From a virus: a stretch of 64,000 nucleotides of DNA. Where the stretch lies: positions 64,001 through 128,000 of IMG/VR virus record IMGVR_UViG_3300037264_006630, one strand, 5' to 3'. The first letter of the stretch is position 1, and every line of letters begins with the position of its first letter. A program made the position numbers and the translations under genes. Shown here in pieces: positions 1,397 to 55,701 of this stretch. The notes beneath the pieces were generated by a model. The model was not told where the DNA came from, made no database searches, and was given only the letters and a program-made list of their open reading frames with translations.

Positions 1397-1770
1397 GCCA
1401 GCACCGCCTCGAGCGCGGCGGCGAGCGCGAGAACGATCTGGTGGAGCGCGGCGACCTTGACCAGCTCGGCGCGCGAGCCGGAGGCGTACATGAGGGTGAC
1501 CCCCACGCGGGGATTGTCGCGGGTGACCTCGGCCGGAGTGCGGAGGGTGATGGCGGCGTGGTCGGCCGTCTCGCACCAGACCGAGGCGTCGGACCGGTAG
1601 CGAACCTCGACACGCTCACCGCGCGCGAAGGCGTCACGCATCATCGCGGCGTCGATCAGTGCCCCGTTGTGGTCGTACAGCCAGGGCTCTTTGGCGAGGA
1701 GCAGCATCACGAGGTTGACCTGGTTGTCGGTCGGGACGGCGGACGCGATCGTGGGCTGCGGTGCGTTCAT
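1393..1770 (-). CDS. Hypothetical protein, probably leaderless
   Basis: ATG at 1770 lies inside the operator of a sigma70-type cassette; MNAPQP... Confidence 0.75.
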   Translation of the reverse strand: MNAPQPTIASAVPTDNQVNLVMLLLAKEPWLYDHNGALIDAAMMRDAFARGERVEVRYRSDASVWCETADHAAITLRTPAEVTRDNPRVGVTLMYASGSRAELVKVAALHQIVLALAAALEAVLA

Positions 1771-1806
1771 ACACACGTTGATACGCACGAAACGCGCGCT
1801 CGTCAA
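1766..1806 (-). promoter_or_regulatory. Sigma70-type promoter with 26-bp operator (1766-1791)
   Basis: TTGACG-N17-TATCAA; operator TTCGTGCGT-ATCAACGT-GTGTATGAA contains the start codon. Confidence 0.8.
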
Positions 1807-1824
1807 GCACCATGATCGACCGAG

Positions 1825-2103
1825 TTGCAGGGCCTCCGATCTGGTAGCGTCGTGCGCGTGAAGCCTGCCGGCTCGGTGTGCCGCCTGACCTACCAGACGC
1901 CCGAGGTGGTTGAGGTTGGCGACGCCATCGTGACCGCTACGACCGGCCGGGCCTACCTCGTGATCGCCGCCAGGCGGATGCGGTCGAAGAAGCCCGGGAT
2001 GTGGATGCTCGACTGCATCGTGGCCGACGAGCTGCCGCCGGATGGCGTTCGGGTTCACCCGCTGGTCTGGTGGAGCCGAGAGCGTAAGACGCCTCGCCGG
2101 TGA
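1825..2103 (+). CDS. Hypothetical protein (start uncertain)
   Basis: Isolated plus-strand ORF with GC3-rich core EVGDAIVTATTGRAYLVIAARR. Confidence 0.45.
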   Translation: MQGLRSGSVVRVKPAGSVCRLTYQTPEVVEVGDAIVTATTGRAYLVIAARRMRSKKPGMWMLDCIVADELPPDGVRVHPLVWWSRERKTPRR

Positions 2104-2373
2104 CCACCCGATGCGCGCCTGCGCCCCGCGCATTCCCGCCACGCCGTGACTTCCGGGCACGGCCCGAATGTGCTATCTGGGCGACCCTCCGTTCACCCTG
2201 CTGGCATGAGTGGAGCAGGGAGCAGCGCCATGGACCACCGCACCGAGGACGAGAACACCCTGCCGCGCTCGGCGGCGCCGCGATCAGATGGCCAGCGGCT
2301 GGAGGCCAAGAGCGGCTTGCGGCGGCGCCTGCGGCGGACGACCCTCGGCGTCCTGCTCCGCAGCGACGAGGCG

Positions 2374-3623: not shown

Positions 3624-3892
3624 ACCACGCAGTCCCGGTGCCGGCGCACGAACGCCGCGAGGATGTAGCGCCGGAGGAGTCGCCCGGGGTCGTTGTCGGG
3701 AGCGGCCAGCGTGCTGGCGACCCCGCAGGTGCAGAGCCACCCGCGCTCCGTCACCCGGACGTGGCCGAGCTTGGTCTCCTCGCGCATGCGCGCGAGGATG
3801 AGGGCGGGCTGGGTGTTGGCGAAGATGCCAGCGTTCCCGATCTTGGCGTCGTCGCGTTCGCGCCGCGTGGGACCGCGACGATGGTCGGTCAC
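3620..3892 (-). CDS. Hypothetical protein (CxC...HxxC possible metal site)
   Basis: GTG at 3892 overlaps the LuxR stop. Confidence 0.6.
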   Translation of the reverse strand: MTDHRRGPTRRERDDAKIGNAGIFANTQPALILARMREETKLGHVRVTERGWLCTCGVASTLAAPDNDPGRLLRRYILAAFVRRHRDCVV

Positions 3893-4179
3893 GTCCCGCG
3901 CACGACGCCGCCATCCGGCGTCCAGCGGTCGGCCTGCGCGATCTCGCCGGAGCGCAGCGCCAGACGCGCGAGGTCGGCGTTGTTGCGGATGCCGAACGAC
4001 TTCGTCTTCTGCAAGACGTGGCCGCGGTGGGTGTCGACCGTCTTGACGGAGGTGCCGAGCCACTGGCCGATCTCCCGGTTGGTGGCGCCCAGCGCCAGGG
4101 CCAGGAAGACCTCGTGCTCGCGCTGGGACAGGGTGCCGATGGCTTCGAGCTCGGTGGTGGGCGGGGTGCGCTTCTTCAT
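3889..4179 (-). CDS. Stand-alone LuxR/GerE-type HTH protein
   Basis: LSQREHEVFLALALGATNREIGQWLGTSVKTVDTHRGHVLQK...RNNADLARLAL is a textbook LuxR C-terminal HTH; no receiver domain. Confidence 0.88.
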   Translation of the reverse strand: MKKRTPPTTELEAIGTLSQREHEVFLALALGATNREIGQWLGTSVKTVDTHRGHVLQKTKSFGIRNNADLARLALRSGEIAQADRWTPDGGVVRGT

Positions 4180-4233
4180 CTTCGGTTCCTCGGTCTTGGT
4201 GATGTCGGTGGTTATTAGGTCGGAGACGATCGG

Positions 4234-5685: not shown

Positions 5686-5711
5686 TGGCGTCTCGTTTCG
5701 TGGGGGTGGGG

Positions 5712-7369: not shown

Positions 7370-7398
7370 GGGGACGCCTCGGGCTGCGTTGGTTTCAT
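7366..7398 (-). CDS. Leader micro-ORF MKPTQPEASP
   Basis: Starts at the operator-embedded ATG; its TGA overlaps the GTG of 7064..7369. Confidence 0.5.
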   Translation of the reverse strand: MKPTQPEASP

Positions 7399-7434
7399 GC
7401 GCTTCATCGTACGCACGAAGCCGTGCGAGGTCAA
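7394..7434 (-). promoter_or_regulatory. Sigma70-type promoter with 26-bp operator (7394-7419)
   Basis: TTGACC-N17-TACGAT; TTCGTGCGT-ACGATGAA-GCGCATGAA. Confidence 0.8.
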
Positions 7435-8130: not shown

Positions 8131-8233
8131 CATGTCCGAGTGATAGAGCACGTCGCGTGCCGATTCGTGCGCTCGTCGAAGTGTGCGAACCGGCTAGGAC
8201 GGCCACGGTCCGGAGTGTCGCTGGCGACGACAA
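8131..8233 (-). promoter_or_regulatory. Sigma54-type cassette A
   Basis: CGGCACG-CGAC-GTGCT (8162-8147), operator 8164-8189, palindrome 8215-8233, ATG 8133. Confidence 0.75.
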
Positions 8234-8331: not shown

Positions 8332-11300
8332 TCAGGCCGCCAGGACTTCGTGCGCCAACTCCAAGAGGAAGTTGCCCCCGCCCGCATCGAACTGCGCCAA
8401 GCCGCCAGCCTCGTCGCCGTCGACCAGCTCGGCCGCTCGCATCTTCCGGGCGATCAGGTCGGTCGCTGTCGCCTGCATCGTGCCGGCGTAGGCCAGGAAC
8501 ACGACCCGCACGGGCTTGATCTGCCCGAGCCGCCAACTCCGGCGGATCGACTGGCGCAGCGTGTTGATGCTGTACTCGATCCCGTACTGGACGATCGTGT
8601 TGGCGAACATCAGGTCCAGTCCCGTCTCGACCAACCTCCCGTTGGTGAACATCACATCGAAGCCGTCCTCGCAGCGATCGCGCATCCACTGCTCCCGCTT
8701 CTCGGGATCGACGCTCGAGTCGAGTTGGACGACACGCAGGCCAGAGGCTTCGAGCGCGGCACGGACGCGGGGACGGGCATCGCGGCGCTGGGTCTGGGTG
8801 AAGAACACCAGCACCTTGCGACCCTTGGCGTGCTCCTCGCGCACCAGCGCGATCAGCTCATCGTCCTTGGGGTAGGAGTCCGGCTCGATTGCCGGGGCCG
8901 ACGCCAGGAGGTCGCCGCGCTCACCGTCGTCGTCGGTGTCGTAGATCTCCTCGCTCTGGTCCGGGCGATCGGGGTAGCCGAGGCACGCCTGGAGGTAGGC
9001 GCCGAGCGCCTTGGGGTGCTTGCGGATCAGCTTCTTCAACTTGCCCTGGAGGTCGGCAACCGCCGCGAGGACGGCCGGGTCCGGCTGCACCAAGCGCACT
9101 TCCTCGGTGTAGTCGGGCAGCTCGAGCCGCAGGTCCCGGAGCTTGACGAACACCGTGAAGGGCAAGAGCAGCGGGATCATGGCCGGCGACATGCCTGGGA
9201 TCTCGCGGATGCGCCCGCCGGTGGTGCCCTTCCGGTAGCCGTACGTGCTGGTGCGCTCCTCCTCCTTGTAGACCGTCTCGAAGAGGCCGTGATGCTCGAC
9301 GAAGGTCGCGCAGTCGGTGTGCTTGTACGTGCGGCGGAACGTCGGGGAGAGGCGGAAGAGCAGGTGGAAGATTGAGGACGCCCGGCCGCCGTAGAGCGTG
9401 CCGGTCATGACCAGCACCTTCCGCGCGCTCGAGATCAGTTGGTGGACGGCGCGCGCCTGGTCGGTCTCCCCCTTCGCGTGCTGGTGCGCTTCGTCGACCA
9501 CCAGCACGTAGCGGCGCGCGTAGTGGTCGTGGATGTAGGCCGCCAGCGGCCAGCGCTTGGTGCCCTTGTTCGTGATCGGCACGACCTGCCAGAGCGGGCT
9601 GCGGCACTCGCTGCACTTCGCCTGGACCTTCCGGTCGATGACCTTCACCTCGGCGCCGCATGCCGGGCAGGCGGCGAAGCTTCGGCGCTCCGTGACCATC
9701 TCCGTGCTGGTCTTGTACGGCCACTCGGTCGATCGGGTGGACACCTCGCGCTCGACGATCTCGCTACCCCGGGTCCAGGCCGACTCCCAGCGGCACCCGA
9801 GCTTGGCGACCTCCTTGCTCAAGACCAAGTAGGTGGCCGTCGGGGAGGCAAAGAACGCATCCACGTCCGCCAACTTCCGGGCGATCATCGCGACGCCGCG
9901 CCGGCCAGTGATGGCCGTGATCTCGCGGACCCACTTGCGGGTGAGATGGGTCGGGCAGACGACCACGACCTTCCGCGCGTGCGCCAACTCGGTGGCGACG
10001 GTGGCCACGCTCGTCTTGCCGCACCCCATTTCGCCGCACAGGATCACCTCCTTGTGCCTGCGCCAGCGGTGAACCACGGCCGCCGCCGCCTCGCGCTGGA
10101 TCGGGAGGATCTCTGGCTCGTCCCGGCCGGGCAGGATTCCAGGCGCGGACAGGCCAGTGAAGTCGTAGGCGTCGAGGTCGCTCGGCTTGAACTGCGGGAC
10201 GTGCGCAGCGAGGATGCCGGCCGCCAACTCGTCGCCGTGCTGCGCGAACCAAGCGCTGGTCTTGGGCTGGTCGTCCTCGACTTGCCACGAATCGAGCACG
10301 CCGGTCTTGAGGTCGAGCACCGAGAGGTACGAGGCGATGCGCTCGCGCACGGTCCGCTCGCCCTCGCCCTGGATCTCGACGGTGGTCTTCACGCTCCCGC
10401 CCTTCACGAGCAACCCCCGAGGGATCGGAGCCACCGGATCGCCGCCGCAGGTGGCGGCGCAACCGCCGGACATGTCGGTGAGCTCGAGCCCGTTCAGGGC
10501 GCCGGCCGCCAGGAGCATCGCTTGGTGACCAGGCCGCGGCGCGAGTAGCGGCGCCAGCTCGTGCGCGGCACCCTCGCCGGTGTGGGCGATCCACTGCTGC
10601 GACAGCCACGCGCCTTCATCGTCGGCGGGCGCGTAGCTCTCAGGCGCGCGGCCGATCAGATCGACCTTCGCGGCGATGACCGGGACGCGGATCGGATAGG
10701 GCTCGGCGTCGACCAGCGAGGGCAGACCGTCGGGGTCGTCGAAGCACTCCACGTTGCCGTAGCCGTAGGTCGAGTTGGTGCGCTGCGCGAAGACCACGAC
10801 TTGATCGAAGGCGGTGACCTCGGGGGCCGGGAAGGCGTAGGCACGGATCGACGAGTAGTGGTTCCGCATGAAGGTGCGGAAGGACTCGATGCGCAGGAGC
10901 TTCCGCGGCACGATGTAGATCAGCAAACCGTAGGGGGCGAGGAAGCGAGTCGTCGCGCGCAGGAATTCGATCTCCTGGCGCATGTTGGCGCCCGTCTCGT
11001 CGGTGCCCTCGTCGTACGGTGGGTTGAGGAACAGGATCCCGAACGGCCGCGCCGCCCGGTCCGGCTCGTGCGTGTCGGGGTTGAGCGCTTTGCCCTTGCC
11101 GTCGAGCACGGCGAGCTGGTGGTAGGAGCCGTGCCGCACCCAGATCATCACGCGAGCAGCCATCGCCGCCCGCTCCTGGTGCAGCTCGATGCCGTACGTG
11201 ACAGCGCCCCACAACTTGCCCAGCGCCGCGGCGGCGTACCCCTCGCCAGCGCAGGGATCGAGGAGCGCAGTGCCGGCCGATTCCGGGTCGAGCCGAACGA

Positions 11301-12203: not shown

Positions 12204-12303
12204 GTCAGGGTGTACTGCACGCGCGGTGCCACTTCGTGCGCGCGTGCAAGTGTACGAAAGCCCCACGCACGGGCCCCCGTGGGGGTGTCATCACGGACGA
12301 CAC
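12201..12303 (-). promoter_or_regulatory. Sigma54-type cassette B (left arm of divergent hub 1)
   Basis: TGGCACC-GCGC-GTGCA (12231-12216), operator 12233-12258, palindrome 12285-12303. Confidence 0.78.
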
Positions 12304-12490: not shown

Positions 12491-12557
12491 TACGCGCGCT
12501 TATACGGGAGCGCAAACGCCGTGACTTGGCCCGCCGACTGCAATACAACTCGGCATG
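12491..12557 (+). promoter_or_regulatory. Sigma54-type cassette C (right arm of hub 1; weak operator)
   Basis: TGGCCCG-CCGA-CTGCA (12527-12542), ATG 12555; degenerate operator 12491-12516. Confidence 0.7.
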
Positions 12558-13465: not shown

Positions 13466-13523
13466 CTCGCGCGCTCCATCGAGTGTGTGAACTGGCACCC
13501 GAAGTGCAATGCATCCGACCATG
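13466..13523 (+). promoter_or_regulatory. Sigma54-type cassette D
   Basis: Operator 13466-13491, TGGCACC-CGAA-GTGCA (13493-13508), ATG 13521; no palindrome seen. Confidence 0.72.
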
Positions 13524-14523: not shown

Positions 14524-14632
14524 GTGTCGGTGGCGACGACACTCCGGACGCCGCGTCCTCCCCGGGCGCCACGTTTCGTGCGCTTCCACGCGTGTGCAAA
14601 CTGGCCCGCACCCTGCAATACACCCAGACATG
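14524..14632 (+). promoter_or_regulatory. Sigma54-type cassette E
   Basis: Palindrome 14524-14542 then TCCGGA, operator 14575-14600, TGGCCCG-CACC-CTGCA (14602-14617), ATG 14630. Confidence 0.8.
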
Positions 14633-15049: not shown

Positions 15050-15083
15050 CCCGCTGGCACGCAGCATGCTCAAGAGGAAAACC

Positions 15084-15407: not shown

Positions 15408-15447
15408 TTGACCGCGCACGGTTCGTGCGTATGATGGTGTGTATGAA
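15408..15447 (+). promoter_or_regulatory. Sigma70-type promoter with 26-bp operator (15422-15447)
   Basis: TTGACC-N16-TATGAT; TTCGTGCGT-ATGATGGT-GTGTATGAA. Confidence 0.82.
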
Positions 15448-15793
15448 CGCAGCGCAGTTGCAGCCCGTCACGTTCGCGACCGTCATCACCGCGATGACCG
15501 TCGACATCCTCCTGGGCATGACCGACGCCGAGCTCATCGCGGCCTGCACGGACCCGACGAGCCCGGCCTACAAGTTCGTCACCGACACCGACCGGTCCCA
15601 CGCCGAGGAGCAGCTCCGGCTTCGCGCGCCGCAGACGATCGACGAGTTCCGCAACCGCCGCACCCGCAACGCGGCCGTGGACGCCGCGACCCGCGCCGCC
15701 GAGTACCTCCGGTCCCGCCTGGCGGCCCGATGCCGTTCGTGCTGGCGCGTGATCGTCGCTCGCGGACTCTCCACCGAGGAGCGATCGTCGTGA
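15443..15793 (+). CDS. Hypothetical protein, probably leaderless
   Basis: Operator-embedded ATG; MNAAQ... Confidence 0.7.
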   Translation: MNAAQLQPVTFATVITAMTVDILLGMTDAELIAACTDPTSPAYKFVTDTDRSHAEEQLRLRAPQTIDEFRNRRTRNAAVDAATRAAEYLRSRLAARCRSCWRVIVARGLSTEERSS

Positions 15794-16407
15794 CCCTCTC
15801 TCTCGACGCGCCCGGCATGGCGCACACCTCTGACGGACCCGCCAGCCATCCGGGTGCGGCGCCCCTGTCCGCCGCTTCCGCGGAGGTGTGCGCCCCCTCG
15901 GGCTCGTCGATCGTCGGGTCCGTCGCGCTGTTCACTTACAACTGCGACCGCTCCGACGGTTCCAATCACGTCGAATGGCGGAGGCGCACCGGCCAGCGCG
16001 TCACGGTCGTGGCGCTCGACGCCCCCGCCGACGGATGGGCGCGCTCCACCCGCGAGGAGCGGATCGCGGCGGCGATGCCGTTCACCTACACGGTGCGGTG
16101 GGCGGATGGCTTCGAGGGCTCCGTGTTCGAGGACGAGATCTTGCCGGCCGCGGCCAGCGCTCCGGGCGTGATCGTCGGTCGCATCGGCCCCGCCCCCCGC
16201 CCGCCCGTCACCATTGACGCCTCCGTGCTCGCCCTGGTCCGCGCGCCGGTCCACCTGCGCGAGCGCCAGGCCCTCGGCACCTCCTACGCATCCGTGCGCC
16301 AGCTCGCCAGGCTGTCCCGCGCCGACGTCGCCGACGCGCTGGGCTGCGACGAGCAGCGCCTGGCCGACTTCGAGGCCGGGTCGATCCCGATCGACCGGAG
16401 GGGCTGA
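15790..16407 (+). CDS. Hypothetical protein with C-terminal XRE-like HTH
   Basis: VRQLARLSRADVADALGCDEQRLADFEAG. Confidence 0.6.
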   Translation: MTLSLDAPGMAHTSDGPASHPGAAPLSAASAEVCAPSGSSIVGSVALFTYNCDRSDGSNHVEWRRRTGQRVTVVALDAPADGWARSTREERIAAAMPFTYTVRWADGFEGSVFEDEILPAAASAPGVIVGRIGPAPRPPVTIDASVLALVRAPVHLRERQALGTSYASVRQLARLSRADVADALGCDEQRLADFEAGSIPIDRRG

Positions 16408-18343: not shown

Positions 18344-20821
18344 ATGACCCACGCCGACGACATCGAGACGATCCGCAACCACAACCCGCACACGTCCGTC
18401 ACCACGGCCGTCGAGGCGCTGTGCCGCATCGTGCTCGATCACGCGGTGGCCCTGACGCGCGTGTCAGATCTGGCCCAGCCGATCGACGCTATCGCCGCGC
18501 GCGACGTCGAGATCCTCGGGCTGCGCGGGGCGCTCGCGGTCGCGCGCGCGGCGCACGCCGACGCGATCGACCGGCTCGCCGGCGAGGGAGCCCGCCTCTC
18601 CGACCTGCTCGCCACCGCCACGAGCGCCTGCCAGCAGAACGCCGGGGCGCTCGACCGGGCGCGCAATGATGCCGCCGTCCTGCGCGCCAACATGGCGGGC
18701 GTGCGTGCCGACAGGGCCCGGATCACCGCCGAGCGCGACGAGGCCCGCGCCTCGCTCGACCGGGTGCTGCGCGAGTCGGCGGAGGTGCGCGACCGCCTCG
18801 CCGCGCGCGTGGCGGAACTGGAGGCGCCCCCGCCGCTCGACGTGTACCCGCCGCGCACCTACGCCGGCCTCATCGCCGAGACCGCGCCGAGCGATGAGGA
18901 GATACTCGCTGCGTACGACACGGCGAGCAGGAGCGCGCGGGCCGATGACCCGGGCATCGCAGGCGTTCGCGCCGTCGCCGATCTCGTCCGCGCCCGCCTC
19001 GCACCCGCGCCGGTGCTGACCGCGGTGGCACTCGGCCGTGCCATCTCGGCCGCGCACGAGGACGCGGTTGCACGGTGGGCCGGCGCCGACCCGAAGGCAC
19101 GAGAGGCCGCGACGATGACGCTGATCGCGGGCAACGACGTGATGCGGCACCTCGGGGCCGTGCATGTCGCGGCGCCCGCGCCCGAGGCGGACGATCTGCG
19201 CGACCGCATCCGCACGATCGCCGACGAGGCGTTCGGCCCGTTCCCGACGGCCTCGGCGGACGAGGCGCTGACGGCGATCGAGCGCGGGATCGCCAAGATG
19301 CGGCAGACCGCCCCGGCGGCGCTCACGGCGGTGCGGCTGACGGGCGCCATGCGGTCCTGGGCCGCGAGCGGCGGGTGCTGGCGCGAACTCGAAGGCACCG
19401 GACCTGCGTCACCGTATGCAGCCACCGAGAGCGCGGCACGGGGCATCCTCGCCCGCCTCGGCCCGATGACGCTGCCGAGTCGCGTCGATCTGGGCCCGGT
19501 CTCGGTGCAGCCCGGGCATCTCGCCGAACCCGCATGCCCGCCGCAATCGGTCTTGCTCATCCGCGGCGGCGTCGAGTATGTGATGGACGCGCACGACGCC
19601 TGCGCCCTCGGCGCGACGCTGACGGCGGTTGGCCGGCGCGTGCTCGGGCTGGATGCCCCGGTGACGCTGCCGACGGGCGCGCGGACGGAGTGGACCGCCT
19701 CCGACGAGGACGGCGAGGACGGCTGCCAGTTTCGCAGCGTCGGCCCGTTCACGCTGCGCGTGACGAACGGCGGCCACTGGCGCGAGTCGATCCGTGGCAA
19801 CATCGGGAAGCAGTCGATGGCCGACGAGAACGGCCGCAGTGCCGCGACCGCGCGTGCCAACGCCGACGCCTGGTCCGCTGCCACCCTCGCCGCGATGGCG
19901 CGGGACGAGGGGCAGGCGACGGGCGCATCGGTCACTTCGCCGACGCCCGTCGAAGGTGCCGCTGCCTGCCATGATGACGGGTGTGGCTGGTCCGGGTCCA
20001 TGGCCGACCTCGAGATCGCCGTCGGCGGCGTGACGCACTGCCCGCGCTGCTACTCGACTGCGATCGAGGAGCGCCCCAGCGCCGCCCCGCCGGTGACGCC
20101 GGTGCAGGGCGAGCCGGTGACGTGGGCCGCGCGGCTGCCTGGCGGCGAGTTGCTCTGCCACGATGACACCGTCGTGACGTACGAGAGCCGCGAGATGGTC
20201 GAGATGACCGCGAGCGCGTTCCGCACCGGCGGCGTGCCCGTCCCGCTCTACACCAGCCCGCCCGCCCCGGTCGCGCACGTCCCGGTGCAGGCGATGAGGG
20301 ACGCGCTCGCGCTGGCCGGGCGGGTGACGATCCCGCCGCCGAATCTCGAGGCTGGCATCGAAGACCGCGCCATCTACATGCGGCTGCGGGGCGTCGCTGA
20401 CGCTGCGGACCGAGCCGTCCCGGTCGCGCCGTCGGTCGTGACCGGGGATCCGTCGCCCAACGCCTGGCGGACCGAGTACCTGCACCACCCAGACCCGCGG
20501 ATCGAAGCCGCGGTGAGCGAAGGCATGGTCGACGATCTCGCCCGTGACGCCACTGCCAGGGCGTGGGCGCATCACGTCGTCGCCGAGTTCGCGCAGCTAA
20601 TCCAACCGGAGCCCCTGGACTTCATTGCGGCACGCACCATCCTCGCCTACCTCGCGGACGCGCCGACGGAGTGGGCCGTCCTGGATGCGTCGGGCAACGT
20701 GCGCGGCTACTTCGACAGCAAGGAGGTGGCTGATCGACAGTCGCCGCCGCCAGGCCAGGGGCGTGTCGAGTACACCGTGATCCCGATCTACGTCCGGCGG
20801 TTGGGCGGGGGCAGCCGGTGA
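18344..20821 (+). CDS. Large mosaic hypothetical protein (coiled coil plus repeated small modules)
   Basis: GAGGAG SD; 825-aa open frame; coiled-coil N-terminus, CxxxxC...CPRC, PVTW...PLYTSP module. Confidence 0.7.
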   Translation: MTHADDIETIRNHNPHTSVTTAVEALCRIVLDHAVALTRVSDLAQPIDAIAARDVEILGLRGALAVARAAHADAIDRLAGEGARLSDLLATATSACQQNAGALDRARNDAAVLRANMAGVRADRARITAERDEARASLDRVLRESAEVRDRLAARVAELEAPPPLDVYPPRTYAGLIAETAPSDEEILAAYDTASRSARADDPGIAGVRAVADLVRARLAPAPVLTAVALGRAISAAHEDAVARWAGADPKAREAATMTLIAGNDVMRHLGAVHVAAPAPEADDLRDRIRTIADEAFGPFPTASADEALTAIERGIAKMRQTAPAALTAVRLTGAMRSWAASGGCWRELEGTGPASPYAATESAARGILARLGPMTLPSRVDLGPVSVQPGHLAEPACPPQSVLLIRGGVEYVMDAHDACALGATLTAVGRRVLGLDAPVTLPTGARTEWTASDEDGEDGCQFRSVGPFTLRVTNGGHWRESIRGNIGKQSMADENGRSAATARANADAWSAATLAAMARDEGQATGASVTSPTPVEGAAACHDDGCGWSGSMADLEIAVGGVTHCPRCYSTAIEERPSAAPPVTPVQGEPVTWAARLPGGELLCHDDTVVTYESREMVEMTASAFRTGGVPVPLYTSPPAPVAHVPVQAMRDALALAGRVTIPPPNLEAGIEDRAIYMRLRGVADAADRAVPVAPSVVTGDPSPNAWRTEYLHHPDPRIEAAVSEGMVDDLARDATARAWAHHVVAEFAQLIQPEPLDFIAARTILAYLADAPTEWAVLDASGNVRGYFDSKEVADRQSPPPGQGRVEYTVIPIYVRRLGGGSR

Positions 20822-21033
20822 ACGCCCACGAACGGCGCGCATGGCGCTCGCTGGTCGATCTCGGCGCCAGGGAACTGGAGCTCGGCGGCCTCCAGGCGCT
20901 GGACCTCTCGACGGTGCGCGTCCGTTCCGATAGCGCGTGTTCGACCTTCATCGACGCGATCATCAACGTCGCCGGCCGCTCCGGCACCCGTGGTCACCGA
21001 CGACAAGAACCCCAAGGCCCCGGAGCCCATCCG

Positions 21034-23468: not shown

Positions 23469-23509
23469 TTGACGGCGGCGGCGTTCGTGCGTATGTTCAG
23501 GCGCATGAA
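23469..23509 (+). promoter_or_regulatory. Sigma70-type promoter with 26-bp operator (23484-23509)
   Basis: TTGACG-N17-TATGTT; TTCGTGCGT-ATGTTCAG-GCGCATGAA. Confidence 0.8.
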
Positions 23510-28820: not shown

Positions 28821-29124
28821 TGAACGACATCGAACGAGCTCGTGATCGCCGGGACGACAAGGCGGGCCCCTGGGAGGTCTGCCGGATCATGTGCCTGGTG
28901 TGCCAGTTCCGGTACGTGAGCGTCCACCCGCTGTACAAGAACGACGAGGGCGATCTGGTCGACCTCACGACACTCCAGTGCGCGCGCTGCAAGGAGCGCA
29001 TGAGCGCGGTCCTGCCGATGCCCGACGAGCCACCGCCCGGCGACTCCGACGCCCCGCCCGACGAGCCAGCGACAGACGTTGCCGCTGGCGCCAGCGTCGG
29101 CGACTCTCCCACCCGGAGCACGCC

Positions 29125-32127: not shown

Positions 32128-32163
32128 ACACACCATGATGCGCACGAAGTTGGGCGTGGTCAA
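32123..32163 (-). promoter_or_regulatory. Sigma70-type promoter with 26-bp operator (32123-32148)
   Basis: TTGACC-N17-CATCAT; TTCGTGCGC-ATCATGGT-GTGTATGAA; the -35 overlaps the upstream TGA. Confidence 0.78.
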
Positions 32164-33030: not shown

Positions 33031-33061
33031 GCTCTGGAAGAGATGCACGTCGAGGGCCACT

Positions 33062-33991
33062 TCACGCGCTCGGTGAGGTGTGCGAAGCAGCGGCGGGGCC
33101 GGGCTCGAGGTAGCCGCAGCCGGCCGCCTTGGTCGCGCGTACCGCCCGGCCGCAGACCTTGCAGGGCTTGCGGTCGCGCTGCGGGGTGTAGGGCGTGGCG
33201 ACCCAGCGATCGAGCGGCGTGCCGGTCTGGGTCTTCGAGTTGTAGGCCATGATCGAGAGCTTGCGGCCGTTCTTCGCGGTGGGCGGCTTGTCGGCCTCGA
33301 GCTTGACGACCCGGGCAAACTGCTCGGGCAGGTCGACGGCGAAGCGCTGCCAGTCGCCCTTGGTGCCGTAGGGGCAGAACACGCAGGCGGACTTGCGCGG
33401 AACCGGGAAGCCGGCGCGCCGCACGAGATCCTCGCACGCGCAACGGCAGAGGCCGCGCTCGATCAGCGGGAAGCGGTTGCGGCGGATCGCGCCGCCCGGC
33501 CGGCGGCGGCGACGGCCGCCCGCGTTCGGATCCTTGTCTGCGCGGGATTCCTCGCCGCGCTCGAACCCGATCCAGACCTCGACCTCTTGGCCGGGGTACC
33601 GATCGTCGAGCCAGCTCTCGAAGCGCTCGACCTTGGCGACGGTGGTGCAGATCCGGTTCGGCCCGGCCATCGGGATCTGCTTCCGCGCGCGCAGCCACGC
33701 GAACAGGCTGCGCGCGTCGCGGACCGGGTAGTTGCTGTGGTCGATGCACACGAACTCGATCCCGTGGCGCGCGCACAGCGGCCGCACCACCTCGTCGATG
33801 TGGCGGTAGGTGCCGGGCCACTCGCCTGGATCGTCGGGGTGGCCGACGTCGATGAACACCACGACGTCGATCCGCTCGCCGCGCGCGATGCCCTCGACGA
33901 GCATGGCGAAGCTGTCGAGGCCACCGCCGAGCGAGAGCACGACGGGGCGGCGCCGGAGCCCCAGGTCGACGGTGAAGTCGAGCTGGTTCAC
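33062..33991 (-). CDS. PP-loop (PAPS-reductase-like) adenine nucleotide alpha hydrolase
   Basis: VVLSLGGGLDS, FIDVG..GEWPGTY, RICT..AK, WIGFERGE..R, FPLIE, KSACVFCPY. Confidence 0.8.
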   Translation of the reverse strand: MNQLDFTVDLGLRRRPVVLSLGGGLDSFAMLVEGIARGERIDVVVFIDVGHPDDPGEWPGTYRHIDEVVRPLCARHGIEFVCIDHSNYPVRDARSLFAWLRARKQIPMAGPNRICTTVAKVERFESWLDDRYPGQEVEVWIGFERGEESRADKDPNAGGRRRRRPGGAIRRNRFPLIERGLCRCACEDLVRRAGFPVPRKSACVFCPYGTKGDWQRFAVDLPEQFARVVKLEADKPPTAKNGRKLSIMAYNSKTQTGTPLDRWVATPYTPQRDRKPCKVCGRAVRATKAAGCGYLEPGPAAASHTSPSA

Positions 33992-34900: not shown

Positions 34901-34996
34901 GCCGAGGAGTATTGCACGGCCGGTGCCACTTCACGCGCATCAGCAGACGCACGAACGACGGCCGGCTTCCGTCCGGAGTGTCGTCGGCGACGACAC
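34898..34996 (-). promoter_or_regulatory. Sigma54-type cassette F
   Basis: TGGCACC-GGCC-GTGCA (34928-34913), operator 34930-34955, perfect palindrome 34978-34996 with TCCGGA. Confidence 0.8.
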
Positions 34997-36001: not shown

Positions 36002-36056
36002 GGTCGAGATGCTTTGCACGCGGTGTGCCGTTCGTGCGCCTAATGATGTGTACGAT
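35999..36056 (-). promoter_or_regulatory. Sigma54-type cassette G
   Basis: CGGCACA-CCGC-GTGCA (36030-36015), operator 36031-36056, ATG 36001; no palindrome seen. Confidence 0.72.
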
Positions 36057-36858: not shown

Positions 36859-36912
36859 GCCTCGATCATAAGCACGCGGCGTGCCGTTCGTGCGCTTGTT
36901 CATGTGCGCGAA
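36856..36912 (-). promoter_or_regulatory. Sigma54-type cassette H (left arm of divergent hub 2)
   Basis: CGGCACG-CCGC-GTGCT (36886-36871), operator 36887-36912. Confidence 0.78.
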
Positions 36913-37119: not shown

Positions 37120-37222
37120 GTGTCGTCGGTGGTGACAGGGGCAGCGCCGGCGTGGGTGTGGTGTTTCGTGCGCTTGGACGTGCGCACGAAGTGGCACGTA
37201 GCATGCTCTACATCCAGACATG
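37120..37222 (+). promoter_or_regulatory. Sigma54-type cassette I (right arm of hub 2)
   Basis: Palindrome 37120-37138, operator TTCGTGCGC-TTGGACGT-GCGCACGAA 37165-37190, TGGCACG-TAGC-ATGCT (37192-37207), ATG 37220. Confidence 0.82.
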
Positions 37223-39044: not shown

Positions 39045-39143
39045 GTGTCGTCGCCGACGACACTCCGGACTCGGGTCCCCCGCGTTTCGTGCGCCTGAAC
39101 GTACGCGCGAACCGGCACGCCGACTGCAATACACCTCGACATG
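39045..39143 (+). promoter_or_regulatory. Sigma54-type cassette J
   Basis: Perfect palindrome 39045-39063 then TCCGGA, operator 39086-39111, CGGCACG-CCGA-CTGCA (39113-39128), ATG 39141. Confidence 0.82.
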
Positions 39144-39543: not shown

Positions 39544-39583
39544 TTGACCTCGCCAGTTTCGTGCATATCATGGAGTGTATGAA
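39544..39583 (+). promoter_or_regulatory. Sigma70-type promoter with 26-bp operator (39558-39583)
   Basis: TTGACC-N16-TATCAT; TTCGTGCAT-ATCATGGA-GTGTATGAA. Confidence 0.8.
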
Positions 39584-41241: not shown

Positions 41242-41327
41242 CTGTCGTCGCGGACGACACTCCGGACCGCCGCGCGGGACGAGATCGTGCGCACTTGGAG
41301 GCGCGTGAACTTGGCACCGCTCATGCT
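41242..41327 (+). promoter_or_regulatory. Sigma54-type cassette K (no proximal ATG)
   Basis: Palindrome 41242-41260 then TCCGGA, operator 41284-41309, TGGCACC-GCTC-ATGCT (41312-41327). Confidence 0.75.
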
Positions 41328-43994: not shown

Positions 43995-44096
43995 GTGTCG
44001 TCGGCGACTACAGGCCGGCGACCACTCCGGAACCAGACTTCGCACACCTGCACGAGCGCACGAACCGGCACACCCCGTGCAGTACCAGGCACCATG
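43995..44096 (+). promoter_or_regulatory. Sigma54-type cassette L
   Basis: Palindrome 43995-44013, operator 44039-44064, CGGCACA-CCCC-GTGCA (44066-44081), ATG 44094. Confidence 0.8.
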
Positions 44097-49106: not shown

Positions 49107-49208
49107 CTGTCGCCGCCAGCGACACCCGGCCCCGATCGCCCCCAGCATCCGCGCCACCTTCCGTCCACCGCCAACCTGGCACCCCTCGTGCTCTACACCT
49201 CCACCATG
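49107..49208 (+). promoter_or_regulatory. Sigma54-type cassette M (operator absent)
   Basis: Palindrome 49107-49125, TGGCACC-CCTC-GTGCT (49177-49192), ATG 49206. Confidence 0.72.
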
Positions 49209-49364
49209 ACCAACGCCTCGACCGACACCAGCACGCCGCCCGCGGAGCCCACGCCCGCTGCCACCGAGCGGCGGCCGAGCCCGCCCTTCCCGTTCATCGA
49301 CATCAGCGGGGCCGCCGAAGCCAGGGCCGCCGTGGGTCAGCCCGTCCCGCCCGGAGTCAACTGA
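49206..49364 (+). CDS. Small Pro-rich hypothetical protein
   Basis: 52 aa from the promoter-proximal ATG; stop 1 nt before the next ATG. Confidence 0.55.
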   Translation: MTNASTDTSTPPAEPTPAATERRPSPPFPFIDISGAAEARAAVGQPVPPGVN

Positions 49365-49365
49365 G

Positions 49366-49635
49366 ATGCCCGAGTCCAAGCCCAAGAAGCTCCGCGCCGA
49401 GGTCGCCGCTCGCGCAGCCCACGGCACCCGCCAGGCCATCCCCGTCATCACCGATGTGGCGCCGGTGCCGAAGCGCCACCTGACCCTGCCGGACGTCGTT
49501 CGCGAGGTCACCCACCGCGGTCGGTTCACGGTGACCCAGATCGCCGGCGCCATCGGCGTCTCGGCCGGGTCAGTCCGGTTCTCTGAGATCGCCACCGAGG
49601 TCGGCAAGGTCCCCGGCTACCGGCCGCTCCGGTAA
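49366..49635 (+). CDS. Small protein, possible HTH
   Basis: LPDVVREV...FTVTQIAGAIGVSAGSV. Confidence 0.55.
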   Translation: MPESKPKKLRAEVAARAAHGTRQAIPVITDVAPVPKRHLTLPDVVREVTHRGRFTVTQIAGAIGVSAGSVRFSEIATEVGKVPGYRPLR

Positions 49636-50273: not shown

Positions 50274-50291
50274 CTATGCAACTTCTGCGGA

Positions 50292-50392
50292 CTGGAGTCG
50301 GCGACGACAGTTGAGCCGCTACTCCGGACCAGCCTTCGCGCACATGAACGTGCGCACGAACGGCACGCCGCGTGCTGTAGTATCCGGGCATG
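50292..50392 (+). promoter_or_regulatory. Sigma54-type cassette N
   Basis: Palindrome 50292-50310, operator TTCGCGCAC-ATGAACGT-GCGCACGAA 50335-50360, CGGCACG-CCGC-GTGCT (50361-50376), ATG 50390. Confidence 0.8.
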
Positions 50393-51544
50393 CAAGCGCT
50401 CCTGAACATCACGACGACGAGGCCCGGCCGCACTGACCGTGGCGTCATCGACGATGACGCGGTTGCGGCGCTGCTCGCCGCCAACGCGCCGGTGGCGATC
50501 GGCGTGTCGGGCGGGAAGGACTCCTGCGCCTGCGCGCTGAAGACCATCGAGCACCTCGACGCGATCGGTCACACCGGCCCCCGCGTCCTGGTCCACAGCG
50601 ACTTGGGCCGGGTGGAGTGGGCGGATTCGGGCCCCACCTGCGAGCGGCTGGCCGCCCACCTCGGCCTCGAGTTGCTGACCGTCCGTCGCGAGGCTGGCGA
50701 CATGATGGACCGCTGGCTCGTCCGCTGGTCCAACAACTGCGAGCGCTACCGCACCCTCCGGTGCGTGAAGAAGATCCTGCCCTGGTCGACGCCGGCCATG
50801 CGGTTTTGCACCAGCGAGATGAAGACCGCCGTCATCTGCCGTGCCCTGGTGGCGCGCTTCCCGGGCCAGACCATCGTGTCGGCCAGCGGCATCCGCCGCG
50901 AGGAGAGCGCCCGACGGAAGAAGGCGCCGATCTCCAAGCCGCAGAAGAAGCTGACCAGCACGACCCGCTGCACCACCGGCCTGGACTGGAACCCGATCCT
51001 CGAGTGGACCAAGACCGACGTGTTCGCCTTCTGCGCTGACCGCGGCTTCGCGATGCACGAGGCGTACGCCACCTACGGGGTGACGCGGGTGAGCTGCGTG
51101 TTCTGCATCATGTCGAGCGCCGACGACCTCGTGGCCTCGGCCGCGTGCCTGGGCAACCAGGACGTCTTCCGCGAGATGGTCGACCTGGAGATTCGCAGCA
51201 CCTTTGCCTTCCAGGGCGGCAAGTGGCTGGCTGATTCTGCACCCCACCTGCTCGACGCCGACCGCCGCGCGGCCCTCGTGGTCGCCAAGGAGCGTGCAGC
51301 CCGGCGAGTGGCGGCGGAGAGCCGGATCCCCAAGCACCTCCTCTTCACCAAGGGCTGGCCCACCGTCATGCCCACCGCGGAAGAGGCGGTGATGCTGTGC
51401 GAGGTTCGCTCCGAGGTGGCCGCGCTGCTCGGCCTCACCATCGAGTACACCGAGCCCGCGGCGCTACTCGGGCGCTACCGCGAGCTGATGGCGATGAACG
51501 CGGCAAAGGTGCAGGTCGATGACGAGGACGACGACGACGCTTGA
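50390..51544 (+). CDS. PAPS-reductase-family (PP-loop) protein
   Basis: IGVSGGKDS, HSDLGRVEW, RFCTSEMK, SGIRREESARR, WNPILEWT, RVSCVFCIMSS. Confidence 0.88.
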   Translation: MQALLNITTTRPGRTDRGVIDDDAVAALLAANAPVAIGVSGGKDSCACALKTIEHLDAIGHTGPRVLVHSDLGRVEWADSGPTCERLAAHLGLELLTVRREAGDMMDRWLVRWSNNCERYRTLRCVKKILPWSTPAMRFCTSEMKTAVICRALVARFPGQTIVSASGIRREESARRKKAPISKPQKKLTSTTRCTTGLDWNPILEWTKTDVFAFCADRGFAMHEAYATYGVTRVSCVFCIMSSADDLVASAACLGNQDVFREMVDLEIRSTFAFQGGKWLADSAPHLLDADRRAALVVAKERAARRVAAESRIPKHLLFTKGWPTVMPTAEEAVMLCEVRSEVAALLGLTIEYTEPAALLGRYRELMAMNAAKVQVDDEDDDDA

Positions 51545-51581
51545 CCATCGCACGTTTCGTGCGTATGGTCGTGTGTATGAA
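51541..51581 (+). promoter_or_regulatory. Sigma70-type promoter with 26-bp operator (51556-51581)
   Basis: TTGACC-N17-TATGGT; TTCGTGCGT-ATGGTCGT-GTGTATGAA; the -35 overlaps the upstream TGA. Confidence 0.8.
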
Positions 51582-52487: not shown

Positions 52488-52489
52488 CC

Positions 52490-53375: not shown

Positions 53376-54379
53376 CGCCGCTGATGGAGCGTGCGCTCAT
53401 CGAGCTCGCCGGCCGCGTCGATCCGGCCGTCCGCGGCGTGGTCGCCTTCTCGCTCGGCTTGAAGTCGCGCGCACTGGTGACGCCGTTCTGCAAGCTCGAG
53501 GACGAACGACTGATCGAGCGCACCGGCGACTCTGACCACTGGCGGATCACCGAGAAGGGCCTGGCCTACGCCGTCCACGGCATCGCCGACACCCCGGCGG
53601 GCATCGTCGCGCGCTACCGAGCCCTCGTCGATGCCCGGGAGGCAGTGGTTCCGCCCGTCCGTGATGCGCGCCAGGTCGCCGCCGATGCGCGCCTCGCCGA
53701 TCTCATCGCCGCCGCGGCCCGGGACGGCGACCTGACGGAGACCGACCTCGCGGGCGTCATGGTCGGCCTGCCGATGTCCAGGCTCGGCACCATGGCCGAG
53801 TACATCACCCGCATGGTGATCGAGTTGCGCCGCCGCCGCGAAGCCGTCGCCACCCAGGCGCCAGCGGCGTACCAGGTGGTCGGTGTGGCCGGGAACGAGC
53901 TGCTAACGACCTCGTCCGCGGACACGGCCGCGGCGCGGGTGCGCGATGCGGGACAGGGCGCAACGGTTCGTCCGCTCTACACCGCCGCATCGATCGGTCC
54001 CGACGACTCGCCGCTCATGGAGGAACTGCGCCAGCATCGCGAGCGCGTCGAGGATGCGAGGCTGGGCGCGATCGCGACAGGCACGCCGGAAGGTGTGGGT
54101 CCGGCGGAACCGTGGGACCAAGCCGAGCTCGAAGCGTTCGCCGAAGAGGTGACGCTGCTCGACGGCGTGCAGATGGCGATGTTCAACGGCTCCGCCGTGG
54201 CCAGCCTCGCCTGCGAGGTTCTGCGCAGCCGGCGCGCGCTCTCTGACCCGGCGCTCCAACCGCCGTGGCTACCCGACCTGCTCGCGATGTTCGGCTGGCA
54301 AGGCGGGACGTACAGTCAAGCTCTCGCCGAGGTGCGCCGACTGCGTGCCTTCGAGCTCGCCGCCCCGAAGGGATCCTGA
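53372..54379 (+). CDS. Mosaic hypothetical protein (N-terminal wHTH-like; PxxY...PLYT module)
   Basis: 335 aa; LIERTG...WRITEKG. Confidence 0.7.
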   Translation: MTPLMERALIELAGRVDPAVRGVVAFSLGLKSRALVTPFCKLEDERLIERTGDSDHWRITEKGLAYAVHGIADTPAGIVARYRALVDAREAVVPPVRDARQVAADARLADLIAAAARDGDLTETDLAGVMVGLPMSRLGTMAEYITRMVIELRRRREAVATQAPAAYQVVGVAGNELLTTSSADTAAARVRDAGQGATVRPLYTAASIGPDDSPLMEELRQHRERVEDARLGAIATGTPEGVGPAEPWDQAELEAFAEEVTLLDGVQMAMFNGSAVASLACEVLRSRRALSDPALQPPWLPDLLAMFGWQGGTYSQALAEVRRLRAFELAAPKGS

Positions 54380-54381
54380 CC

Positions 54382-55359
54382 ATGCCACCCACCCTGCTCG
54401 AGCTCTACGATCGCCTCATGACGATGGAGGGCACCGACATCCGCAACGAGGTCGCCACCCTGTGCGGGATCATGAGCGGCATCGAGGGCCGGGTGGAGAA
54501 GATGCGGCGCGGCTTCGTGCCGCTCTCCGACCTCGAAGACTGGAAGGAGCGCGCGAGGGAGGCGGGAAGCCGCCACCAGATGTTCGCGTTCGCGCTCGAC
54601 GGCATCGGCAAGATGGTCGGCGTGGCCATCGACCAGGAAGAGGGCTGGACGCACGAGGACATCGACCGGCTGGAGGCCGCGGTGTCGGCGGCGCTCCGTG
54701 ATGCCGGCATCGCCGATGCAGGCGGGATCACTGCGGGCCGACTGGCCGGGGCGTGGGCTCGGATGGAAGGCGACCCGGCGCACGCCGACAAGGACCCGAT
54801 CGATCGGGCCGGCGTGGTGCTGGGCCAGCTCAGACACAAGCCAGCGGCCACGGTCGAGACGCCGACCCAACAGCCGTACGGCTACGTCGTCACCAAGGCC
54901 CGGCCCGGCGCGTCCTTCACGACCAGCAAGGCCATCGCCGATGGGATGGTGAAAGCCCGGGACGGTGCCGAACTCGTCACGGTCTACACGGCGCCGATGC
55001 CGCCGCAGCCGTTCGCTCCGGCCAAGCGCTCCCGGCCGAGCTGCACCAACTGCCTCATCGCCAACCGCGATGACATCGACCACCGCACGGTCGACTGCCC
55101 GCATCAGACCCTCACCGTCCTCGTCGCGCTGGCTTCCCCGGACTTCATTCAGCGCCGGTTCCACGTCCGCTGTCTGATCGGCTCAAGCGACGGCCCTGCC
55201 TTCGCGCGGATCCGCTGCGGACCCAGCGGTGTACTTCAACTCGCGTGGTCCGACTCCCCCACGCGCGAGCCATGCTCCTGGGAGTTGCTCGACTGGACCG
55301 CAGACCTCATCGCCGCCGAGCAGGTCTCCTTCGTCCCGGCTCCGCCGGAGGATGCGTGA
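54382..55359 (+). CDS. Mosaic hypothetical protein (coiled coil; PYGY...VYT module; CxxC..H...CPH)
   Basis: 325 aa. Confidence 0.7.
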   Translation: MPPTLLELYDRLMTMEGTDIRNEVATLCGIMSGIEGRVEKMRRGFVPLSDLEDWKERAREAGSRHQMFAFALDGIGKMVGVAIDQEEGWTHEDIDRLEAAVSAALRDAGIADAGGITAGRLAGAWARMEGDPAHADKDPIDRAGVVLGQLRHKPAATVETPTQQPYGYVVTKARPGASFTTSKAIADGMVKARDGAELVTVYTAPMPPQPFAPAKRSRPSCTNCLIANRDDIDHRTVDCPHQTLTVLVALASPDFIQRRFHVRCLIGSSDGPAFARIRCGPSGVLQLAWSDSPTREPCSWELLDWTADLIAAEQVSFVPAPPEDA

Positions 55360-55664
55360 GCGAGGCGCCGCTGGTCGGCGGCGACCTGCACGTCTCCGCG
55401 GTCTGGTACGGCCAGAACACCGAGCGTGCGACCCGCGACGGCATGGTCTCCCTGACGCTGTCGACGCCAATCGGCGATCTGCACCAAGACCTGGGGCCGC
55501 TGTCCGCCGTCTCCTTCGGTCGCGCGCGGTCGATCGCCGACCGGCTGGGGGCGCACTTCGTGGTCCACCACGCGCTGGTCGCACTGGTCACGTCGTGGGG
55601 CTGCGATGTTTCGTGCCCCTGCGCCGACTGCTCGGCCAAGTCTCGGTCCGGCAAGCGTCCTTGA
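55356..55664 (+). CDS. Hypothetical protein
   Basis: GTGA overlap; C-terminal CxxxCxCxxC. Confidence 0.6.
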   Translation: MSEAPLVGGDLHVSAVWYGQNTERATRDGMVSLTLSTPIGDLHQDLGPLSAVSFGRARSIADRLGAHFVVHHALVALVTSWGCDVSCPCADCSAKSRSGKRP

Positions 55665-55701
55665 CGCGCCAGACGTTCGCGCGTATCGATATGTGTATGA
55701 A
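55661..55701 (+). promoter_or_regulatory. Sigma70-type promoter with 26-bp operator (55676-55701)
   Basis: TTGACG-N17-TATCGA; TTCGCGCGT-ATCGATAT-GTGTATGAA. Confidence 0.75.

Follow-up and report, generated by a model that had tools for sequence, protein, structure and literature searches.

A 26-bp inverted repeat at fixed positions on sigma-70-type and sigma-54-type promoters of an uncultured phage: a candidate operator for a common repressor

Results

A Palindrome at 37 Promoters of a Large Phage

The DNA analyzed here (the window, 64,000 nt) comprises positions 64,001–128,000 of the single 184,943-bp contig of IMG/VR virus record IMGVR_UViG_3300037264_006630; genome-wide counts given below cover the full contig. 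IMG/VR classes the contig as a virus that is complete and bears direct terminal repeats. The contig has a GC content of 69% and encodes a large terminase, a putative portal, a major head protein, DnaB, a beta-clamp, a UvrD-type helicase, and RecT-like and SbcC-like proteins. No near relative was found among cultured phages; metagenomes contain many relatives of its capsid and PAPS-reductase-like proteins, from which the contigs compared below (L063, L105, L106, L108, and L111) are drawn. The L063-type and L108-type phages come from samples ERZ1292619/ERZ1292625 and SRR7877885. The element in question is a 26-bp inverted repeat (IR), TTCRYRCRY-N8-RYGYRYGAA, hereafter called the operator. It lies on sigma-70-type promoters (class A) and at sigma-54-type cores of the form GG-N10-GC (class B), the latter often in the company of a second, upstream activator palindrome (UAS).

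Matches to the pattern were scored by mismatches against shuffled sequence and by a half-site position weight matrix (PWM). At up to two mismatches the window contains 22 matches where 1.09 are expected and shuffles reach a maximum of 5. There are 21 real copies, and the match at 28979, with two mismatches, is coding sequence with no promoter context. The genome as a whole contains 36 matches at up to one mismatch. The PWM scan of the whole genome, which the preliminary description of this DNA had called for, returned exactly 37 sites, 24 of class A and 13 of class B, with 0–1 in shuffled genomes and no other sequence less than 4 bits from the weakest true site. All 20 copies listed in that description are real, and a 13th class B copy, at 33061, had been missed. 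Every one of the 37 sites is at a promoter, and both orientations occur only because promoters do. Indeed, 13 of the 15 strict TTGAC-N17-19-TAnnnT matches in the genome carry the operator, and among the 24 sigma-70-type promoters and 16 sigma-54-type cores taken together, 37/40 share it.

Fixed but Different Geometry in the Two Promoter Classes

At class A promoters, eight of which fall in the window, a cTTGAC element is followed after 9–12 nt (mostly 10–11; 9–11 in the window copies) by the operator. The −10 box, TAnnnT, forms operator positions 9–14, with a spacer of 17–18 bp to the −35 TTGAC, and an ATG forms positions 22–24, which places the start codon 7–8 nt past the −10 hexamer, with its A at 8 nt. 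Spanning about −21 to +5, the operator takes in the start site along with the −10 hexamer and the ATG-AAn start codon; the overlap with the −10 box and start codon had been described for the eight window copies. All 24 sites match sigma-70-type leaderless promoter geometry, with start positions predicted from sequence. In 20/24, the ATG within the operator opens a long open reading frame (ORF) with a GC content at third codon positions (GC3) of 0.80–0.98, and the mRNAs of these genes are therefore predicted to be leaderless; the other 4/24 genes start farther downstream, behind a short leader.

Class B is represented by 13 operators, all within the window, which harbors 16 sigma-54-type cores, GG[C/T][A/C]C-N6-TGC[A/T], with exact GG-N10-GC (−24/−12) spacing. 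The gap from operator to GG is 1–3 nt at 13/13, which corresponds to the 0–2 nt of the preliminary description when counted from the preceding base. The ATG of class B genes lies 13–14 nt past the −12 C, the exception being the 41313 core, with a leader of 56 nt. A UAS palindrome, TGTCGTCG-N-CGACGACA (TGT-N11-ACA type), is present at 10/16 cores, centered 60–70 bp upstream of the GG, and the operator spans about −53 to −28, between the UAS (center about −85 to −89; −95 at one cassette) and the core. Four cores, 13494, 33058, 36029, and 36885, have an operator without a UAS, the core at 49178 (cassette M) has a UAS without an operator, and those at 12528 and 15056 have neither, so that the operator is absent or decayed at 3/16 cores. 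The copy at 12491, previously termed weak, is decayed and contains indels, and the reported absence at cassette M stands and applies likewise to the core at 15056. Operator and UAS are independent modules.

Evidence for Protein Recognition of the Operator

The 74 half-sites read T68 T74 C73 R Y R C74 R Y, and changes at the variable positions are essentially all transitions; that is, each arm is a strict pyrimidine–purine alternation flanked by an almost invariant TTC/GAA. When arms were shuffled among operators, the number of Watson–Crick pairs between arms was 144 ± 2.3 for class A and 88 ± 3.4 for class B, compared with 146 and 83, respectively, in the real operators, and A–C and G–U arm combinations are seen on both strands. 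The arms thus vary independently, and this lack of compensatory covariation argues for a symmetric protein site, of the dimeric type already suggested, rather than a hairpin or cruciform under selection. The view that the operators form a single sequence family, recognized as DNA by one symmetric protein, is well supported.

The 8-bp center had been thought free to vary, a claim that did not hold. Measured as information content, the center of class A operators, where the −10 box lies, has 8.2 bits and that of class B operators has 6.5 bits, compared with 1.5 ± 0.43 bits (maximum 3.8) for random 8-mers. The class B center (operator positions 10–17) has the consensus yTGnACGn, and there is no −10 box there to account for its conservation; it may represent an extended proximal half-site or a second contact. 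The notion that class B operators are inverted class A operators was discarded, as only 9/13 score better when reversed, which is not significant.

Relatives Share and Rearrange the Wiring

The same double wiring is found in L063, the capsid of which is 53% identical to that of the present phage. In this contig, the operator stands 2 nt from each of two sigma-54 cores, and the upstream palindrome of the present phage also occurs; the contig has, in addition, three TTGAC/TTGCG promoters with the operator over the −10 box, where an independent gene call starts at the equivalent ATG. The L063-type operators have largely lost the outer TT, which is found in 3/8 class A half-sites compared with 45/48 in the present phage (p = 7e-4) and in 0/4 class B half-sites compared with 23/26 (p = 1.3e-3), while an inner TGCG is fixed in 12/12 half-sites. 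That both classes share this drift in specificity fits the prediction of a single common binder. Thus, the central proposal of the preliminary description, one operator on two promoter classes, is upheld both by the fixed geometry within each class and by their shared drift in the L063-type phage.

Other relatives carry only part of this arrangement. L108 has a syntenic class A site plus an operator-less sigma-54 cassette, and the cassettes of L111 (six) and L106 (three) are of the GG-N10-GC sigma-54 type with a near-leaderless ATG and no 26-bp operator. These have tandem GGGTA-N6-TACCC upstream palindromes and the core GGCAC-N6-AGCA/TGCT. Because such distant relatives and 3/16 cores of the present phage have sigma-54 cassettes without it, the operator appears to be a lineage-specific control layer added onto an older sigma-54 cassette design. 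In addition, the PAPS-reductase-like gene is preceded by a class B cassette here (window 50274–50389), by a class A cassette in L063 (2700–2764), and by no promoter in L108 (2756–2768), and promoter cassettes appear to be exchanged between relatives with quick turnover. When IMG/VR was scanned for exact matches to the class A operator, to the class B junction, and to the tail of the UAS, only chance or coding matches came up. A repeated motif in L105 proved to be a coding repeat, QLDREI. A full IF3 (IF3_N + IF3_C) is encoded in the related contigs L105 (15668–16387, minus strand) and L106 (11402–12121, minus strand); the present phage has none. IF3 disfavors leaderless mRNAs, and its presence is notable beside the many leaderless starts in this phage group.

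A Probable Myxobacterial Host and the Sigma-54-Type Cores

The phage beta-clamp is 60–72% identical to cellular DnaN proteins, on contigs of up to 1.2 Mb, for which the named hits are all Kofleriaceae or "Deltaproteobacteria," and the best genome hit of a transposase in the phage is Kofleriaceae, with 65% identity. As these two independent genes point the same way, the host is probably a Kofleriaceae myxobacterium (Myxococcota) from soil. The Kofleriaceae and Polyangia metagenome-assembled genomes (MAGs) with the nearest transposase relatives both encode Sigma54_DBD (RpoN) proteins (219 and 224 bits). The exact GG-N10-GC spacing, the UAS at 10/16 cores, and the presence of RpoN in the inferred host clade make the sigma-54 reading of the class B cores credible. 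An actinobacterial host, suggested by the leaderless starts and TAnnnT −10 boxes and one that would have precluded sigma-54, was rejected as the principal assignment, given that the DnaN and transposase relatives point to Kofleriaceae; a caveat stays and is taken up below.

Family searches of the phage for RpoN, Sigma70_r2, HTH_8, and IF3 found none, and Pfam searches of its 30 largest proteins found no RNA polymerase. The sole NtrC-like gene, in or at the edge of an inserted IS903-like transposon (genome about 19,800–20,830, plus strand; L002 about 1800–2830), matches Sigma54_activat at 12.9–14.7 bits, below the cutoff. Its product has a Walker-A-like GPRGTEGE lacking the lysine, no GAFTGA segment, the sequence WPGNLASL, and an intact C-terminal Fis-type helix-turn-helix (HTH); it is probably a plain DNA binder that cannot work as a sigma-54 activator. 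It was set aside as activator or operator binder on account of this degeneracy and because it lies in a recent insertion, whereas the operator sites are common to L063. The UAS was not enriched as the site of a host enhancer-binding protein (EBP) in the Kofleriaceae and Polyangia MAGs, with seven hits vs. three for the control at two mismatches.

Candidates for the Operator-Binding Protein

In 401 Myxococcota genomes, including the Kofleriaceae MAG, the operator occurs at background, 0–3 per genome, which favors a phage-encoded binder over a host regulon. The single outlier, G364, with 32 pattern hits, has a different and longer palindrome, a tandem TTCRCGCACC-N6-GGTGCRYGAA with a 53-bp period (G364:C92:19881-20118).

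Within the phage, an 89-aa HTH protein encoded next to cassette M is a candidate, unproven, for the operator binder or regulator. It is attractive because it has a clear HTH and because the cassette that is predicted to express it is the only one with a UAS and sigma-54 core and no operator. The protein has no Pfam or PHROG match, and single-sequence AlphaFold gave a model with three C-terminal helices at a predicted local distance difference test score (pLDDT) of 59, too poor for a fold search. A ParB-like protein with ParB_N and HTH_ParB domains (genome 160947–162626) is also present and, by analogy, could act in a KorB-like role. Further candidates are a GerE protein (window 3889–4179), the product of window 15886–16407, a Sigma70_r4 protein (genome 171584–172225), and the neighbor of the latter (genome 172222–172605). 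The products of two other genes that had been named as candidates, 55717 (ribbon-helix-helix, RHH) and 56163 (HTH), gave no significant Pfam or PHROG match and have no homologue in the syntenic block of L063, and both were dropped.

A conserved leaderless unit, TTGACA-N10-ATCGTGCGT ATGATCGT ACGCATGAG, was found at 12 metagenome loci. It encodes a protein of about 157 aa with a weak DUF6247 match and an N terminus that is antitoxin-like by eye, and probably represents a mobile-element gene that regulates itself. The unit was set aside: its protein has no relative among the phage proteins, and the likeness of the palindromes was imposed by the search pattern.

Operator-Free Promoters and Other Features

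Two strong sigma-70-type promoters in the genome are free of the operator. One (genome 56102–56190; L005 about 10100–10190) has a GC-rich hairpin and T-run (GGCCTCCGA...TCGGAGGCC ATTCGCTTTT) no more than about 40 nt beyond it and looks like a short noncoding RNA unit. The other (genome 180675–181120; L008 about 15675–16120) heads a leaderless ATGAAC start of a 135-aa protein, just 5′ of the beta-clamp gene. No operator copies are found in the capsid/tail block, about 31 kb after 55676, which instead has CCTTGCG...TAGnnT-like regions with normal leaders. Here, GC-rich elements of the form CCTTGCGCG-(N)-GCGC...TAGnnT, followed by GGAG leaders, precede head, capsid, and tail genes (window 58696–58760 and 61271–61344; genome 132078–132130). 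These CCTTGCGCG-type elements are possible operator-free late promoters, or hairpins. Elsewhere in the genome (175777–179991; L008:10777-14991), an intein that itself bears a LAGLIDADG homing endonuclease domain splits a 1404-aa SNF2-type helicase.

Table 1. Operators, promoter cassettes, and associated loci (window positions unless a contig is named; cores are sigma-54-type)
Feature	Position	Strand	Remarks
Class A operator	1766–1791	−	TTGAC-N10-IR; −10 box and leaderless ATG inside; gene ends near 1393 (−)
Class A operator	7394–7419	−	ATG in IR opens 10 codons only; real gene downstream with leader
Class A operator	15422–15447	+	ATG at 15443 opens 116-aa ORF, GC3 0.94
Class A operator	23484–23509	+	Heads operon leading to large terminase (27240–28820) and putative portal
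Class A operator	32123–32148	−	Leaderless ATG opens 176-aa ORF
Class A operator	39558–39583	+	Leaderless ATG opens 456-aa ORF (phrog_2319)
Class A operator	51556–51581	+	Directly after PAPS-reductase-like gene; syntenic copy in L108
Class A operator	55676–55701	+	Gene 55717–56166 with short GGAG leader; heads head-morphogenesis/capsid block
Class B operator	8164–8189	−	Core 8148–8161, 2 nt away; UAS 8216–8232
Class B operator	12233–12258	−	Core 12217–12230; UAS 12286–12302
Class B operator (1 mismatch)	13466–13491	+	Core 13494–13507; no UAS palindrome
Class B operator (1 mismatch)	14575–14600	+	Core 14603–14616; UAS 14525–14541
Class B operator	33061–33086	−	Core 33045–33058; no UAS; overlooked in preliminary description
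Class B operator	34930–34955	−	Core 34914–34927; perfect UAS 34979–34995
Class B operator (1 mismatch)	36031–36056	−	Core 36016–36029; no UAS
Class B operator	36887–36912	−	Core 36872–36885; divergent from 37193 cassette; no UAS of its own
Class B operator, perfect palindrome arms	37165–37190	+	Core 37193–37206; UAS 37121–37137
Class B operator	39086–39111	+	Core 39114–39127; perfect UAS 39046–39062
Class B operator (1 mismatch)	41284–41309	+	Core 41313–41326; UAS 41243–41259; only cassette with 56-nt leader and AGGAGG
Class B operator	44039–44064	+	Core 44067–44080; UAS 43996–44012
Class B operator	50335–50360	+	Core 50362–50375; UAS 50293–50309; PAPS-reductase-like gene 50390–51544
Cassette M, no operator	49108–49191	+	UAS 49108–49124; core 49178–49191; 52-aa ORF 49206–49364, then 89-aa HTH protein
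Core	12528–12541	+	Decayed operator remnant about 12491–12516; no UAS
Core	15056–15069	+	No operator, no UAS; gene with Shine-Dalgarno-like leader
89-aa protein, HTH segment FTVTQIAGAIGVSAGSVRF	49366–49635	+	Predicted to be expressed from operator-less cassette M
Operator-less sigma-54-type cassettes	L111 gaps 4189, 6731, 7560, 9013, 13057, 15447; L106 5200(−), 8432, 16941
Leaderless-unit loci	L139:2580-3100(−), L151:1680-2190(+), L115, L117, L131, L137, L138, L144, L145, L148, L149, L152

Discussion

A Common Repressor as the Favored Explanation

The explanation that we favor, with a confidence slightly better than even, is that the 26-bp repeat is the repressor operator of one symmetric (dimeric or tetrameric) protein that would gate both promoter classes. 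This protein would most probably be phage encoded and belong to a family outside the profile libraries. At class A promoters, repression would follow from the geometry, as the operator covers the −10 box, the start site, and the start codon, and the bound protein would exclude the host sigma-70-type RNA polymerase. The footprint of the sigma-54 holoenzyme reaches about −34, so that at class B a protein on the promoter-proximal half-site would collide with the polymerase. Here, the bound protein would block the holoenzyme at its upstream edge, quench the loop between activator and polymerase, or both; in synthetic enhancers, a protein placed between the UAS and the sigma-54 core can quench activation (PMC4740811). 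One protein would in this way gate almost every strong promoter of the phage, with class A genes firing upon loss of the protein alone and class B genes needing an enhancer-binding activator as well. Repression at class B and the resulting AND-gate logic are plausible, and repression at both classes is favored over a co-activator role because the operator is dispensable for the cassette and is present at cores without a UAS.

Several observations weigh against a common repressor. Pfam searches of 212 small phage proteins gave only GerE, a weak HTH_31, one Sigma70_r4, and a weak zf-HC2, none linked to the operator. A working EBP was not found in the phage, and the activator arm thus rests on some other factor. 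The repressor model does not account for the conservation of the class B center, yTGnACGn, at 6.5 bits, and the comparison of specificity drift covers six sites on short contigs from one relative population. In addition, the bin of one relative contig is Gaiellaceae, which belongs to the Actinomycetota, and this phylum is not known to possess sigma-54. Finally, the complete genome gave no integrase (Phage_integrase), Resolvase, or ParA (AAA_31) match and contains no recognizable immunity repressor. Since no lysogeny module is visible, the binder may be a regulator of lytic-cycle timing or shut-off, at least as likely as a prophage immunity repressor. A fuller scheme along these lines is decidedly speculative, and we would not expect all of it to hold: the virus would be a virulent myxobacterial phage with nearly all early and middle genes leaderless and transcribed by host sigma-70 and sigma-54, with one operator read by a binder of new fold, mainly through the pyrimidine–purine alternation of the arms (DNA shape) plus the TTC/GAA ends, and with the sigma-54 cassettes fired by a phage-specific activator that is not of the canonical AAA+ type; together these would make up a compact natural gate with two inputs, built of modular cassettes under rapid exchange.

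Alternative Explanations

The same sites might instead belong to a switch in which one protein represses class A and aids class B, as an IHF-like bender or a holder of the holoenzyme, and in accumulating shifts transcription from sigma-70-type to sigma-54-type promoters in the manner of phi29 p4 or PexR. For the myxobacterial PexR, one set of dyads serves both repression of a sigmaA promoter and activation of a sigma-54 promoter (PMC12754779), and in synthetic enhancers a bound factor raises or lowers output depending on phase (PMC4740811). The class B operator sits where IHF-type factors act, the short loop from a UAS at about −85 to the core would gain from a bend, and the class B center is conserved differently from that of class A. 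Nonetheless, we consider such a switch unlikely. The operator is missing from the L111 and L106 cassettes and from 3/16 cores here and is thus dispensable, it is present at four class B cores that have no UAS to loop from, and the class B genes are small and accessory, not the late structural genes expected of a switch of this kind. Moreover, as is generally known for RpoN, sigma-54 promoters are not activated by simple recruitment. Reading by a host protein seems less likely still. Here, the phage would have copied the operator of a global or stress-responsive host repressor, its genome being silenced or released by host physiology, which would explain why no convincing phage-encoded DNA-binding protein was found and would agree with the similar palindromes that cover the leaderless promoters of a gene, cellular or from a mobile element, on 12 contigs of metagenomes. 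However, that likeness was imposed by the search pattern and the protein of the element has no phage relative, the operator is at background frequency in the Myxococcota genomes, and its specificity drifts among closely related phages, as is typical of phage-encoded immunity/regulator pairs.

A different question is whether the class B cores are read by sigma-54 at all. We regard it as improbable, to much the same degree as a host binder, that these cassettes are served by a phage-specific factor or polymerase, which would leave the operator on two promoter classes but do away with the EBP-dependent AND gate. The phage has neither an RpoN gene nor a working EBP, its NtrC-like gene being degenerate and in a transposon; related phages differ in UAS type, with TGTCGTCG-N-CGACGACA in some and GGGTA-N6-TACCC in others, which would suit a phage-specific activator; near-leaderless starts are unusual for sigma-54 genes; and the Actinomycetota bin of one relative contig would also fit. 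Set against this, GG-N10-GC and GGCAC/TGCW are exact at 16 sites, GG-N10-GC is kept in relatives despite changes in neighboring bases, the upstream dyads are at typical enhancer distance, RpoN is present in the inferred host clade, and neither a sigma-70-family r2 domain in the phage nor an RNA polymerase among its 30 largest proteins was detected with Pfam. A structural nucleic acid element (cruciform, RNA hairpin, terminator, or insulator) in place of a protein operator is very improbable. The 9-bp GC-rich arms, the positions at operon boundaries, and the alternating pyrimidine–purine sequence, prone to unusual DNA conformations, are features that such an element might have; but the arms lack compensatory covariation, most of the repeat precedes the predicted start site in either class and so is not transcribed from its own promoter, no T-run follows it, and its near-invariant outer TTC/GAA is as expected for base-specific contacts.

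Comparison with Known Systems

Should a common repressor be correct, the phage would offer a natural case of direct repression at sigma-54 promoters, at many promoters at once, and a ready-made two-input gate that responds to derepression alone or to derepression plus an activator. It would also open up the transcription program of large uncultured myxobacterial phages. Being short, modular, and interchanged among relatives, the cassettes lend themselves to reporter tests and to use in synthetic biology with high-GC hosts.

Dispersed operators of global repressors are exemplified by the C1 operators of P1, the conserved inverted repeats of phiC31, and the KorB operators of RK2. As in those systems, one regulator would have many copies of its site across a large replicon, mostly on or next to promoters, and many operons would be gated. 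In contrast to them, the operator described here occurs on promoters of two mechanistically different kinds, sigma-70-type and sigma-54-type, with a separate fixed position on each, and contains the −10 box and leaderless start codon; searches of this phage found neither a cognate repressor nor an integrase or partition system. The start-associated sequences of Cluster K mycobacteriophages (SAS) and their extended form (ESAS) are located around ribosome-binding sites and have variable spacing between their inverted repeats. They too mark the starts of many small phage genes; the present operator differs in its fixed 8-bp center, its overlap with promoter elements, and its service to leaderless genes. 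Phage YuA similarly uses both host sigma classes, but is reported to have one sigma-54-like promoter and no shared operator, compared with 16 cores and 24 sigma-70-type promoters here.

Stoperators are oriented with transcription. Cluster A mycobacteriophages have tens of these repressor sites across the genome, with genome-wide silencing (PMC9283540, PMC6550527), much as would apply here. Stoperators, however, are short, asymmetric sites that are read by a monomeric two-domain repressor and stop elongation (PMC9283540), whereas the present element is a 26-bp palindrome on promoters of a phage in which no lysogeny module was found. The analogy to stoperators and ESAS drawn in the preliminary description is thus a loose one, the more so as no integrase, resolvase, ParA, or immunity repressor was recognized.

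A parallel within the phylum of the inferred host is PexR of Myxococcus xanthus (PMC12754779), in which one protein uses dyad repeats at sigma-54 and sigmaA promoters. PexR, however, is itself a bacterial EBP (bEBP), and its UAS dyads overlap the sigmaA promoter, while the phage operator is an element distinct from the UAS, lies right beside the −24 box (at about −40 and not at UAS distance), and is present at 37 promoters of a genome that encodes no AAA+ activator. In synthetic NtrC/sigma-54 enhancers (PMC4740811), a repressor-type protein between the UAS and a poised promoter lowers output through interference with looping. The loops there exceed 150 bp; the arrangement here is natural, with a loop of about 60–65 bp and an operator that touches the −24 element, which makes direct occlusion at least as likely as quenching. 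In the literature, we found no description of one operator at fixed, differing positions on sigma-70-type and sigma-54-type promoters. Dispersed one-operator regulons are already well known, and what is unusual here is the two-sigma wiring and the inclusion of the −10 box and leaderless start codon within the operator.

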